Positions 59,978 to 63,729 of a DNA stretch of 64,000 bases are shown piece by piece; positions within the stretch are counted from its first letter, which is position 1, and each line of letters begins with the position of its first letter. The notes under the pieces are model-generated. The model was given only the letters and a program-made list of their open reading frames with translations, was not told the DNA's origin and did not search any database. The position numbers and the translations under genes are program-made. This stretch comes from an uncultured Alphaproteobacteria bacterium (GTDB taxonomy: Bacteria > Pseudomonadota > Alphaproteobacteria > Rs-D84): the NCBI GenBank assembly GCA_944389265.1, contig CALXLS010000002.1, positions 177,349 through 241,348 of the forward strand. The letters are read 5' to 3'.

Positions 59978-62900
59978 ATGATCACAAAAGATAATTTAGA
60001 AAAATATCTATATTTTATGGGATTTACAAAAAATGGAAATATTGCAACCTCTCCTGATAATATAGGAATTACTATAGATTTTGAATCAAAAAAAATAAAT
60101 TATCCAGAAAATCTAGTTATTATAGGTAATCAAACAACAAATTTTGATAAAAAAGAAAACTTTGTTGTTCTAGATTGCGTTATAAGATTGTTAAGAATGG
60201 GCTATTTAGCCTCAAACATCATTTTAGAACAAAAATGGCAACTTGGACATGGTGCTAGCGGAGGAAGAGCAGACATTCAAATAAAAGACAATAACGATAA
60301 ATCCGTTATTATTATAGAATGTAAAACAAGCGGTAGAGAATTCATATCAGAATGGAATTCTATGAAAGAAGACGGAGGACAATTATTCTCTTATCTACAA
60401 CAAGAAAAGGATACAGAATTTATATGTCTATATACTGCGGACTTTGTTGATGATATAGCAACAAATGATTATTATTTAATTAAAGTTCAAGATGAACCAA
60501 ACTTAAAATTACCGACAGATAAAAAGGGATATTCGTCCGCAAAAAAGGTTCATGACTTATTTAATGTTTGGAAGAATACTTATGGTTTTGACTACAAAAC
60601 AAAGGGTTTTCTAGAACCAAACATAAAACCATACCAAATCGGCAAAAGCACAATCAATCTTGACAATTTACAAGAAGTTGATTCTGCAATTGTTCAGAAA
60701 AAATATAATGAATACGCAACTATTTTGAGGAAACACAACGTAAGTGGTAAAGAAAACGCATTTGACAAACTTGTAAATTTATTTTTAGCAAAGCTTATAG
60801 ATGAAATACAAAATACAGAAAAAAAAGAAAAAGGACAGCCACAAGATTTAAAATTTTATTGGAAAGGCTCATCTTATGATAATCCTTATGATTTACAAGA
60901 TAGATTACAAAAACTTTATAAAGACGGTATGGAAAAATTCCTAGAAGAAGATGTTGTTTATATAGAAAATTCACAAATAAACAACGCATTCAAACTATTC
61001 AAAAAAGATCCAGACGCAACAAAAAAAACAATATTAGACTATTTTCACAAATTGAAATTCTATTCAAACAATGATTTTTCATTTATAGATGTACATAATG
61101 AAGATTTATTTAATAAAAATTCTGCTATACTTTTAGACACGATACGTATGATTCAAGATATAAAACTAAAAAATGACGCAGAACAAACTTTTTTGGGGGA
61201 TTTATTCGAAGGATTTTTAAATCAAGGAATAAAACAAAGCGAAGGTCAATTTTTTACTCCATTACCTATAGTTAAGTTCATAATTTCTTCACTTCCTCTA
61301 GAAAGGATGATAAATCAAGCAAACTGTCCACTACAGGTTATAGACTACGCGTGTGGAGCTGGTCATTTTCTAAACGAATACGGACGTCAAATAAAAAATT
61401 TTGTAAAAGAACCGAAAGCATACTACCAAGCAATAACAGGAATCGAAAAAGAATATAGACTATCAAAGGTAGCAAAAGTTTCGGCTTTTATGTACGGACA
61501 GGACGGTATAGACATTATATATGGTGATGGTTTAACAAATGAATTTCACAAAAATAAAAACAAAATAAAAAAAATTGAAAATGAAACTTTTGACTTAGTA
61601 GTAGCAAATCCTCCTTATTCTGTAGACGGATTTCTTGAAACTTTATCAGAAGAAGATAGAAATAAATTTGAGATTTTCTCAAGTGTTAGTAACACAGAAA
61701 ATTGTAATGCAATTCAATTATTTTTCATAGAAAGAACCAAACAACTATTAAAAGACAATGGAATAGCCGCTCTTATATTACCGGATACAACTCTTACAAA
61801 GAATGAAAAAATATACAATGAAGCTCAGAAAATTATATTGAAATATTTTGATATTATTGCAATTTGTTCTATGAGCAAAGGAACATTTTGGAAAACCAAA
61901 ACCGGAACATACATACTGTTTCTAAGAAAAAAATCATCTATACCATCTCTAACGGAACATTACAAAAACCGTATAAACACTTGGTTTAACAACGATTTTT
62001 CAAAAGATATAATTTTTAATGATACAAGTTTGTTAGAAGATTATTGCCATCAAAAAAGCACAACATTAGACAAATACAAAGAATTTATAAAAAAAGCAGA
62101 CAAAGTGTCAAAAGAAATAGAAAAAGAGAAATTATATTATTATTTATTAGCAAGAAACAATCCTCAAAAAATACTTGTCTTACAAACTCCAATAGACACA
62201 AAAGAAGCCAAAAGATTTTTAGGGTATTTTTGGAGTGATCGCAAAGGTCAAGAGGGGCTACATTATAATAATGAAAAAAACAATGCGGAAAAAGGCATTG
62301 ATATAAAAGGAATAAATCAAATAAAAACCCCATTATTTGATCCCCAAAATTTATTTGATGACCAAAATAAAATCAACTCACTTATAAGGAATAAATTTTC
62401 TGGTCATCCTATAATTATTCCATCTACATTATTAAGTTATGTTAAAGAGTTAAATCTAGTAGACATGCTTGATTTTACAAAAGAAAAATTTAGTCCAAAT
62501 CTAAATCTAAATGCAGATGTCAAAATAGACATAAAAAGCAAATTTAAATACGAAAATCTCGGAGACTTGATTATCGAGAATAAAAAATCAACAATACAAG
62601 TAACCGAAGCTCAAAATACTCCAAATGGTAAATACCCATTTTTTACCAGCGGAGAAAAAATCTTAAAAACAGATAAAAAACTTGTATCCGATAAAAATCT
62701 TTATATGTCCACGGGCGGCCTAGCATACATAAATTATTATGATGGTGATGCGGCATACTCTACAGATACATATTCCTTTAAAACAAACAAAGATATTGAA
62801 ATTGAATATATTTTTGAAATTATCAACTCTATAATACCACAAATAAATCAATTATATTTTAAAGGGTCTGGATTAAAACACCTACAGAAACCAGAATTTA

Positions 62901-63610
62901 AAAAGATAAAAATTCCAGTTCCTAATTTATCAACCCAAAAAAATATCATAAAAGAATGTAAAGAACAAAATGATATTGCTAAAAGAGCCCAGGAAAAAAT
63001 AAACGACAACAATAAACGTATTTTATCTCTGATAAACAAGTCTATTTCTAATAATAAACTAACAACATATAAACTAAACGATAGACGTTACTTTAATTTG
63101 TTTATTGGCAAAAGAGTAGAAGAAAGAAACACAAGTCAAACAGGTCAATATCCTGTTTATTCAGCAAATGTTAACACATTATTTGGGGAAGGCTATACAG
63201 ACAGAAATCCATATGAAGACATCCAAAGTATAAAAGAAACCGGCTTCAATTCGGATAGCATCTTATGGGGAATAGATGGGGATTGGATGACCGGATGGCA
63301 AGATAAAAACAATGAATTTTATCCAACAGATCACTGTGGGGTTTTGAGAATAAAAGATGAATCTGTAATTAATCCTTATTTTTTTAAATTCGCATTTGAC
63401 ATTTTAGGAAAAACTTATAAATTTGACAGAAGCAAAAGAGCCAACATAGAAGCCATTTCTTCTTTATCTATAGAAATACCAGATATATCCATACAAAATG
63501 ATATAGTTAAACTAATAAAGAATCTCGAGAAAGAAAACGCCCTTTCACACCAAGAAATAATAGTATCAGAACAAGAAAAAAAAGCCATTATTGAAAAATA
63601 TCTAAATTAA
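59978..63610 (+). CDS. Single-chain restriction-modification enzyme, Type IIB-like (AloI/CjeI/PpiI/TstI-type). N-terminal PD-ExK endonuclease, then gamma-class N6-adenine DNA methyltransferase, then two HsdS-like target-recognition domains. 1210 aa.
   Basis: N-terminus: ...RADIQIKDNNDKSVIIIECKT (D...ExK). Methyltransferase: GQFFTP, DYACGAGHFL (motif I), VVANPPYS (motif IV, NPPY). C-terminal ~450 aa: two TRD-like segments separated by a helical spacer (PNGKYPFFTSGEKILKT... and GQYPVYSANVNTLFGEGYTD...). Confidence 0.7.
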   Translation: MITKDNLEKYLYFMGFTKNGNIATSPDNIGITIDFESKKINYPENLVIIGNQTTNFDKKENFVVLDCVIRLLRMGYLASNIILEQKWQLGHGASGGRADIQIKDNNDKSVIIIECKTSGREFISEWNSMKEDGGQLFSYLQQEKDTEFICLYTADFVDDIATNDYYLIKVQDEPNLKLPTDKKGYSSAKKVHDLFNVWKNTYGFDYKTKGFLEPNIKPYQIGKSTINLDNLQEVDSAIVQKKYNEYATILRKHNVSGKENAFDKLVNLFLAKLIDEIQNTEKKEKGQPQDLKFYWKGSSYDNPYDLQDRLQKLYKDGMEKFLEEDVVYIENSQINNAFKLFKKDPDATKKTILDYFHKLKFYSNNDFSFIDVHNEDLFNKNSAILLDTIRMIQDIKLKNDAEQTFLGDLFEGFLNQGIKQSEGQFFTPLPIVKFIISSLPLERMINQANCPLQVIDYACGAGHFLNEYGRQIKNFVKEPKAYYQAITGIEKEYRLSKVAKVSAFMYGQDGIDIIYGDGLTNEFHKNKNKIKKIENETFDLVVANPPYSVDGFLETLSEEDRNKFEIFSSVSNTENCNAIQLFFIERTKQLLKDNGIAALILPDTTLTKNEKIYNEAQKIILKYFDIIAICSMSKGTFWKTKTGTYILFLRKKSSIPSLTEHYKNRINTWFNNDFSKDIIFNDTSLLEDYCHQKSTTLDKYKEFIKKADKVSKEIEKEKLYYYLLARNNPQKILVLQTPIDTKEAKRFLGYFWSDRKGQEGLHYNNEKNNAEKGIDIKGINQIKTPLFDPQNLFDDQNKINSLIRNKFSGHPIIIPSTLLSYVKELNLVDMLDFTKEKFSPNLNLNADVKIDIKSKFKYENLGDLIIENKKSTIQVTEAQNTPNGKYPFFTSGEKILKTDKKLVSDKNLYMSTGGLAYINYYDGDAAYSTDTYSFKTNKDIEIEYIFEIINSIIPQINQLYFKGSGLKHLQKPEFKKIKIPVPNLSTQKNIIKECKEQNDIAKRAQEKINDNNKRILSLINKSISNNKLTTYKLNDRRYFNLFIGKRVEERNTSQTGQYPVYSANVNTLFGEGYTDRNPYEDIQSIKETGFNSDSILWGIDGDWMTGWQDKNNEFYPTDHCGVLRIKDESVINPYFFKFAFDILGKTYKFDRSKRANIEAISSLSIEIPDISIQNDIVKLIKNLEKENALSHQEIIVSEQEKKAIIEKYLN

Positions 63611-63652
63611 AATCATAATTCTAAAAATAAATATATACAGAATAACAATTTT

Positions 63653-63729
63653 TGGTCGGAGTGACTGGGTTCGAACCAGCGACCTCTACGTCCCGAACGT
63701 AGCGCTCTACCAGACTGAGCTACACTCCG
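63653..63729 (-). tRNA. tRNA-Pro (anticodon CGG)
   Basis: Minus-strand cloverleaf. Acceptor CGGAGTG/CACTCCG. D-arm GCTC-AGTCTGGTA-GAGC. Anticodon arm CTACG-TTCGGGA-CGTAG. T-arm GCTGG-TTCGAAC-CCAGT. Discriminator A. Encoded CCA. Confidence 0.85.

Follow-up and report, generated by a model that had tools for sequence, protein, structure and literature searches.

A probable single-chain Type IIB restriction-modification-specificity enzyme encoded by a horizontally gained gene beside tRNA-Pro(CGG) in an uncultured alphaproteobacterium

What kind of enzyme is encoded by the long open reading frame (ORF) that lies next to a tRNA-Pro(CGG) gene in an uncultured alphaproteobacterium, and how did it come to be there? 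The ORF is found near the right end of a 64,000-nucleotide stretch of contig CALXLS010000002.1, which was analysed as a whole and is called the window here. At positions 59978-63729 of the window, a first-pass annotation had proposed a fusion of restriction (R), modification (M) and specificity (S) functions in a single polypeptide. The start of that interval held, but its end did not, since 63729 is the end of tRNA-Pro(CGG) and the gene itself ends at 63610. In the following, this restriction-modification-specificity gene and its product are called the RMS gene and the RMS protein. The explanation that we consider very probable as a whole is a self-sufficient single-chain Type IIB (also classed IIC/IIG) RMS enzyme of the AloI/TstI/PpiI/CjeI kind, which was gained horizontally without the help of an integrase.

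In the ORF listing, the RMS gene is one frame on the plus strand (59978..63610, stop codon included) that encodes 1210 amino acids from an ATG start, without internal stop or frameshift. Its N-terminus, MITKDN, matches the consensus MITKxN of the family in the homologue alignment, indicating that the start codon is correct, and a GGAAGG ribosome-binding site is located 7 nt before the ATG. The exact protein was present on 23 contigs from several metagenomes, two of which were 99.99-100% identical to the window across 56000..64000 (blastn), and therefore the ORF is not an assembly artefact. With regard to phase variation, no homopolymer beyond A8 was found in the RMS gene, and no length differences were found among the contigs. 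The terminator scan gave 2 terminator-like sites, compared with 1.4 expected, and is uninformative.

The RMS protein scored 1219 bits (E = 0) with the PADLOC model for Type IIG restriction endonuclease-methyltransferases (REase_MTase_IIG, PDLC03624) and 838 bits with PDLC03615. More than 8000 database proteins matched it at E ≤ 1e-10, most of them with the same length and Pfam architecture, and it is a new, uncharacterised member of a large, well-described family of single-chain RMS Type IIB/IIG enzymes. Its top sequence match in the PDB was the Type IIB enzyme RM.BsaXI (8w0p_A, E 2e-30, phmmer), and in this alignment residues E73, D90, E105 and K107 of BsaXI fall on E84, D99, E114 and K116 of the RMS protein. 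In the cryo-EM paper on BsaXI, these four were identified by mutagenesis as the catalytic residues of the nuclease and are said to be absolutely conserved across Type IIB enzymes (PMC11997821). Alignment of the RMS protein with its 120 best homologues (MAFFT) showed a conservation of 98-99% for the tetrad, in which D99 belongs to the motif RAD (starting at residue 97) and E114 and K116 to ECK (114-116). The Pfam match to a nuclease family, HSDR_N_2 at residues 74-119, was weak and sub-threshold. For the methyltransferase (MTase), Pfam recovered the Eco57I domain with 46 bits. The motifs follow the order of the gamma class, namely GQFFTP (423-428), motif I with DYACGAGHFL (456-465) and NPPY (544-547), and GQFFTP, motif I and NPP(Y) were invariant in the same alignment.

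We modelled residues 1-1200 with AlphaFold2 from an input alignment of 80 sequences and obtained a mean predicted local distance difference test score (pLDDT) of 86 and a predicted template modelling score (pTM) of 0.70. When the model was compared with the PDB by Foldseek, BsaXI ranked first (E 3.7e-26, 888 aligned columns), and Type I M subunits and, for the C-terminus, HsdS 1ydx (TMt 0.60) were also recovered. BpuSI and DrdV were among the matches as well, with BsaXI and HsdS scoring far better. When only the S region (residues 701-1210) was compared with PDB sequences, there were no matches; HsdS was recovered by the fold search only. At the sequence-profile level, Pfam Methylase_S matched the C-terminus in two stretches (69 bits), and several PADLOC Type I Specificity_I models covered residues 853-1013 and 1028-1209. 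Taken with the predicted fold, these matches identify the C-terminus as an HsdS-like module, TRD1-CR1-TRD2-CR2, with two different target-recognition domains (TRDs). The HsdS-type motif P-x4-Q opens both of the long CR helices (P982…Q987 and P1168…Q1173); P980, P982, Q987 and I990 are near-invariant and Q1173 is invariant among the homologues. When TRD1 with CR1 was compared with TRD2 by blastp, the only match spanned 19 residues (query residues 137-155, protein residues 977-995, E 0.03) and was the P-x4-Q start of CR1, the TRDs being otherwise without significant similarity. Because the two TRDs are unrelated in sequence, the target should be bipartite and asymmetric. The parts of the gene are as follows.

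59978..63610, plus strand: RMS gene, encoding the restriction-modification-specificity enzyme of 1210 amino acids
60143..60502, plus strand: predicted PD-(D/E)xK endonuclease core, residues 56-175, an α/β core in the model (phmmer alignment to RM.BsaXI; conservation; weak HSDR_N_2 match)
60227-60229, 60272-60274, 60317-60319 and 60323-60325, plus strand: predicted catalytic codons E84, D99, E114 and K116
60503..61177, plus strand: multi-helical connector between nuclease and MTase, residues 176-400 (AlphaFold2 secondary structure; alignment to the BsaXI connector)
61178..61942, plus strand: predicted gamma-class N6-adenine MTase domain, residues 401-655, Rossmann-type in the model (Pfam Eco57I; PADLOC MTase_I/MTase_II; PDB matches to Type I M subunits and BsaXI)
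61244-61261, 61340-61372 and 61607-61618, plus strand: MTase motifs GQFFTP, motif I (IDYACGAGHFL) and motif IV (NPPY)
61943..62167, plus strand: five-helix 'knob'-like insert between two MTase β-strands, residues 656-730 (AlphaFold2; helices at 658-726, strands at 644-651 and 732-736)
62168..62527, plus strand: post-knob segment and flexible tether to the specificity module, residues 731-850 (AlphaFold2; low-confidence tether at 768-774, pLDDT below 50)
62528..62926, plus strand: predicted TRD1, residues 851-983, hypervariable (Pfam Methylase_S 855-992; PADLOC Specificity_I)
62927..63049, plus strand: long helix CR1, residues 984-1024, 41 residues in the model (AlphaFold2; motif P980-x-P982-x4-Q987 before and at its start)
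63050..63484, plus strand: predicted TRD2, residues 1025-1169 (PADLOC Specificity_I 1028-1209)
63485..63607, plus strand: long helix CR2, residues 1170-1210 (AlphaFold2 helix 1170-1199; P1168-x4-Q1173)

With this assignment, one chain combines a nuclease, a gamma-class N6-methyladenine (m6A) MTase and two TRDs. Single-chain RMS Type IIB enzymes have been described as carrying a knob domain and a TRD1-CR1-TRD2-CR2 module that is tethered to the MTase by a flexible loop; the knob is reported for BsaXI as well as for every single-chain enzyme of this type that was modelled (PMC11997821). The model of the RMS protein shows the same traits, with R, M and S in one chain, the S region on a flexible tether at the C-terminus and a knob-like insert in the MTase. 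The first-pass annotation, which had read a D...ECK nuclease, the motifs GQFFTP, DYACGAGHFL and NPPY, two HsdS-like TRDs and an architecture of the AloI/CjeI/TstI type from a single 1210-aa ORF, was right on each of these: the frame is unbroken, D99, E114 and K116 align to catalytic residues of BsaXI, all three MTase motifs are present with hidden Markov model support (Pfam Eco57I, PADLOC), Methylase_S and Specificity_I models fall on both halves of the C-terminus, and the domain order fits, with BsaXI as the best relative in sequence and in fold.

Conservation was distributed unevenly along the chain among the 120 homologues. Mean identity was 0.5-0.7 across the R-M core, compared with 0.2-0.3 across TRD1 and CR1. 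The nuclease, connector and MTase were at least 45% identical in 117-120 of the 120 homologues, whereas TRD1 reached this level in 20 and TRD2 in 4. Both TRDs were shared with two proteins only, P0001 and P0002, at 61-68% identity. Such a profile is the pattern of TRD reassortment known for Type I and Type IIB enzymes (PMC4081073).

The arrival of the gene was traced by comparison with four contigs of a sister lineage (L007, L008, L009 and L012), and the features of the locus are the following.

59861..63649, no strand: inserted segment of 3,789 bp (blastn break-points against the four sister contigs; GC content)
59861..59977, plus strand: upstream non-coding part of the insert, with the GGAAGG ribosome-binding site and a putative promoter, TGgTATAAA (read from the sequence)
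63653..63729, minus strand: tRNA-Pro(CGG) (ARAGORN; Rfam, 66.5 bits)
58800..59810, minus strand: left-flank host gene for a YceG/MltG-family endolytic transglycosylase (context only; Pfam YceG)
63869..64000, plus strand: start of the right-flank host gene for an AMP-binding (acyl-adenylate-forming) enzyme of 560 amino acids, which runs beyond the window end (context only)

The sister contigs encode an identical EF-G, and their flanks show about 90% nucleotide identity to the window. The RMS gene is absent from them; YceG, tRNA-Pro and the AMP-binding gene are contiguous, with tRNA-Pro in the same place. Of the ENA assemblies, ERZ28614114 and ERZ24773280 contain the lineage with the RMS gene, and ERZ16268134 contains the one without it. 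Homology between window and sister lineage ends at 59860 and restarts at 63650 (blastn), and the empty site, read directly from the sister contigs, consists of 19 bp, cacttaaatactgaaaaac, in place of the 3,789 bp of the window. The right boundary of the insert is 3 nt past the CCA end of tRNA-Pro, whose 3' end faces the insert from the opposite strand. A YceG/MltG genome scan covered 46 related species, and none of them has an RMS homologue at the locus; in the closest species, tRNA-Pro lies 50-150 bp from YceG, so that absence is ancestral and the gene was gained. YceG/MltG is the conserved neighbour of tRNA-Pro in these genomes, and the AMP-binding gene adjoins it in most related species. 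The insert carries the RMS gene alone and has a GC content of 0.27-0.29, compared with about 0.38 for the window. The gene itself has a GC content of 0.284 (mean 0.392, z = -3.7) and a GC content at third codon positions (GC3) of 0.201 (mean 0.278, z = -2.7), both lower than in all 23 host genes tested in the window. The RMS gene was acquired horizontally, as a lineage-specific low-GC insertion.

On the locus, the first-pass annotation had placed the gene immediately next to tRNA-Pro(CGG), followed by an unrelated metabolic gene, had taken it as horizontally acquired without need of a separate S or M gene, and had asked for GC, codon bias and att-like repeats of the tRNA 3' end to be checked. 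Both ARAGORN and Rfam place the tRNA 42 bp downstream of the RMS gene, and the AMP-binding gene next to it (start 63869) is whole in contig L001. The empty site in sister strains and the absence in 46 related species bear out the acquisition, and the low GC and GC3, below those of 23 of 23 host genes, agree with it. Among the called genes of contigs L001-L006, no other R-M or defence gene, and hence no R-M partner, was found within 10 kb on either side. The att-like repeats did not turn up, however: probes of 25 nt and 16 nt, with as many as 3 mismatches allowed, found nothing in the window besides the tRNA itself. No integrase was found in the insert, and its ends showed only chance-level, AT-rich matches as terminal direct or inverted repeats. 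With no integrase, no att repeat and no terminal repeats, this is not a classic integrase-made tRNA island. A 4-nt TTTT microhomology occurs at both junctions and is trivial in DNA so AT-rich. As to the route of insertion, we can only infer illegitimate recombination or homologous recombination through the flanks.

We also asked whether the insertion could be the work of an integrase-like gene located about 3.7 kb past the tRNA, and decided against it: the gene occurs in R-M-carrying and R-M-lacking lineages alike, conserved core genes lie between it and the insert, and its product has no detectable catalytic domain. This gene (L001:17390-18388, minus strand, 332 aa) lies between an acyl carrier protein gene and lepA, about 3.7 kb past the right end of the window, and its product has the Arm-DNA-binding and central domains. 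In the R-M-lacking lineage, two small ORFs without family (L008:159-554 and 583-993; 131 and 136 aa) are found between lepA and the integrase-like gene and are absent from the lineage of the window. The region may be a remnant of an old integrated element.

The nearest homologue, P0001, shares 65% identity with the RMS protein and is encoded in an unrelated organism beside an AbiEii toxin gene. Its gene is also low in GC for its own contig (0.293 vs 0.41). Nucleotide similarity between the two stops at the ends of the coding sequence, and the non-coding ends of the insert do not travel with it. In a plasmid collection searched by tblastn, the best matches had 30-35% identity over at most 63% of the protein, which gives no evidence of a plasmid-borne close relative. 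The flanks of P0001 (L016:508-1912 and 6357-7685) hold the AbiEii toxin gene, which has an ORF of 198 aa upstream of it, and the gene of an AAA_14/DUF4143 ATPase; together they form a small defence neighbourhood.

As for the host, EF-Tu and EF-G of the window cluster with metagenome-assembled genomes (MAGs) named "Alphaproteobacteria bacterium", and the 46 species of the YceG/MltG scan are uncultured gut and rumen alphaproteobacteria, several of them named Candidatus Enterousia. One related MAG, L029 (OZ007020.1), has been closed as a circular chromosome and measures only 958,618 bp, which points to a clade with strongly reduced genomes. For such a genome, a defence gene of 3.6 kb is a proportionally large gain.

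By analogy with relatives, a mechanism can be proposed for the RMS enzyme. The two TRDs of the S module would read an asymmetric bipartite site of 2-4 bp, N5-7 and 2-4 bp. The MTase would flip out and m6A-methylate one adenine per half-site, on opposite strands, and the host chromosome would in this way be protected. Phage or plasmid DNA that lacks this methylation would be cut by the nuclease in the presence of Mg2+, at set distances away from the site and potentially on each side of it. Since a chain brings a single nuclease and a single MTase to a pair of half-sites, the enzyme would most likely be a homo-oligomer, which would bridge two sites and make one double-strand break per site first. 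Such behaviour is known from TstI and AloI: as homotetramers they hold two sites together, begin with a single double-strand break at each of them, and cleave without needing S-adenosylmethionine (PMC4027205, PMC4081073, PMC11997821).

Several points weigh against reading the RMS protein as a Type IIB enzyme of this subgroup with full restriction activity. Cutting on both sides is the biochemical property that defines Type IIB enzymes (PMC4027205, PMC4081073), and for the RMS protein two-sided cleavage and the oligomeric state would be extrapolations from those relatives. The assignment to the AloI/TstI/PpiI/CjeI subgroup rests on architecture and on BsaXI, homology being shown to BsaXI and to the more than 8000 uncharacterised proteins of like architecture. 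BsaXI itself is only about 20-22% identical to the RMS protein, is an (RM)2S assembly with a separate S subunit where the RMS protein has S fused to the chain, and carries a C-terminal double-helix 'paddle' without counterpart in the RMS protein. The promoter scan gave 30 promoter-like sites against 25.2 ± 3.9 expected, which is not above chance, so that the promoter upstream of the RMS gene, an extended -10-like TGgTATAAA, is one that we infer only. Finally, methylation by TstI competes with cleavage at unmodified sites at similar rates, which makes complete excision of a site unlikely in vivo (PMC4027205), and by this analogy the restriction efficiency of the RMS enzyme in vivo may be modest.

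The same TstI rates lend some weight to the alternative that survives best, although we regard it as unlikely: that in vivo the protein acts chiefly or solely as a DNA methyltransferase, with an epigenetic or 'orphan-like' role and a nuclease that is silent or too slow to restrict. The presence of one nuclease per two half-sites fits this idea too. However, the nuclease tetrad is intact, and its conservation across 120 homologues argues for selection on cleavage; in addition, the nearest homologue lies in a defence neighbourhood, and characterised members of the family do restrict. Slightly less probable again is a one-sided Type IIG/IIL cutter like MmeI or BpuSI, which would recognise a continuous asymmetric site and would not be Type IIB. 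MmeI and BpuSI have a single TRD, in contrast to the two different HsdS-type TRDs with long CR helices predicted here, and a review places two-TRD RMS enzymes among the two-sided cutters (PMC4081073). The label 'Type IIG' on the best PADLOC model would favour the one-sided cutter, as would the presence of BpuSI and DrdV among the fold matches, but the fold scores of BsaXI and HsdS are far above theirs.

We consider it very improbable that the protein works as part of a multi-gene Type I, BREX or MADS system with partner genes elsewhere in the genome. Weak NCBIfam matches to MAD2 and BREX PglX and a PADLOC match to mad5 hint at such a system, but the scores are far under the curated cut-offs, the insert holds a single gene, no helicase or translocase domain was found in the protein, and no defence gene was found within 10 kb on either side. 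Membership in BREX or MADS was rejected on the scores (MAD2 69 bits vs a cut-off of 720; BREX-6 PglX 17.6 vs 900) and on the lack of system genes nearby. That the gene is a decaying or inactive remnant, a pseudogene in the making, might be expected in a clade of reduced genomes (such as the relative with a closed 0.96-Mb chromosome) but is hardly credible for a full-length ORF whose start fits MITKxN, whose catalytic motifs are intact and which is identical on 23 contigs from different samples.

Beyond the self-sufficient single-chain Type IIB enzyme that we favour, the spacer in which its gene lies drew attention in other genomes. On contig L063 (1348-7000; JAZLAV010000019.1, Candidatus Enterousia sp.), a different insert is found just 3' of tRNA-Pro(CGG), at the same position as the RMS insert. 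Its GC content is 0.324 vs 0.397. It encodes a protein of 788 aa that carries a pair of MTase domains (PADLOC MTase_II, 258 bits; Pfam N6_N4_Mtase and Eco57I) and, convergent with that gene, a 497-aa ORF without family match, which may be the endonuclease of the double-MTase. The tRNA-Pro-to-YceG interval is expanded by 1-4.5 kb of varied cargo on five further contigs. These carry ORFs of 1041 and 329 aa without family (L025:2455-7000), an ABC transporter with two cysteine-rich, secreted-looking paralogues (L041:3382-7000), one ORF of about 485 aa without family each (L045:5205-7000 and L048:4886-7000) and a lipoprotein-like ORF of 241 aa (L028:5967-7000). The interval looks like a variable region. 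We offer a two-part suggestion, tentatively and as one that may well prove wrong when its parts are taken jointly. First, defence cassettes would be captured repeatedly, and without an integrase, in the spacer 3' of tRNA-Pro(CGG) before mltG/yceG in Candidatus Enterousia-like reduced genomes. Separately, since its TRD pair occurs in only two database proteins, at 61-68% identity, the RMS enzyme may recognise a sequence that the Type IIB repertoire does not yet include.

Some other features of the window were also recorded. Two tandem ORFs of 255 aa on the minus strand (56876-57643 and 57788-58555) have signal-peptide-like N-termini and a beta-barrel-like composition. They have no Pfam match in the tabulated annotation, and their 90%-identity clusters hold 5-15 variants among strains with identical EF-G; they may be surface-exposed outer-membrane proteins under diversifying pressure. 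Low-GC kilobase bins were found at 19001-20000 (0.270), 36001-37000 (0.303) and 29001-30000 (0.324), compared with about 0.38; they may represent AT-rich intergenic DNA or additional foreign segments. A single cis-regulatory RNA was called in the window, the alpha-operon ribosome-binding-site regulatory element, Rfam Alpha_RBS (40241-40350, minus strand; 43.2 bits vs a gathering score of 38), which lies within the ribosomal-protein block, its expected place.

The RMS gene adds one correctly classified defence gene to an uncultured gut alphaproteobacterial lineage with a small genome, and carries little weight beyond annotation. The clean pair of insertion and empty site shows a recent horizontal gain without integrase or att signature. 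Type IIB enzymes are used in 2b-RAD genotyping, and new specificities can be engineered by reassorting their TRDs. The RMS enzyme would have practical value only if it is expressed and its bipartite specificity is new. A lineage-specific m6A motif could be a strain marker in long-read metagenomes.

Among known systems, the Type IIG/IIL enzymes MmeI, BpuSI and DrdV resemble the RMS protein in joining a nuclease and a gamma-class MTase in a single chain, and differ from it in having one TRD, a continuous site and a one-sided cut, whereas two different TRDs are predicted here. With the Type I methylase core (M2S1; EcoKI, M. genitalium HsdS 1YDX), the RMS protein shares the predicted TRD1-CR1-TRD2-CR2 fold, the P-x4-Q motif at the helix starts, the gamma-class MTase fold and the logic of a bipartite target. 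Unlike Type I systems, it has one MTase per S module instead of two and no HsdR translocase/helicase; no helicase or ATPase domain was found in the Pfam, NCBIfam and PADLOC scans and no RecA-like domain in the AlphaFold2 model, which were inspected for Type I and Type ISP traits. As the nuclease is fused directly to the MTase, cuts would be expected at fixed positions near the site and not far away. BsaXI (PDB 8W0P, 8W2P, 8W2Q), whose differences were weighed above, is alike in the nuclease tetrad, the helical connector, the MTase and the knob insert. The closest likeness in architecture is to AloI, PpiI, TstI and CjeI: like them, the RMS protein is about 1200 aa long and encoded by a single gene unaccompanied by separate M or S genes, and it runs from a PD-(D/E)xK nuclease through a gamma-class m6A MTase (NPPY) to a C-terminal, HsdS-like region with two modular, swappable TRDs.

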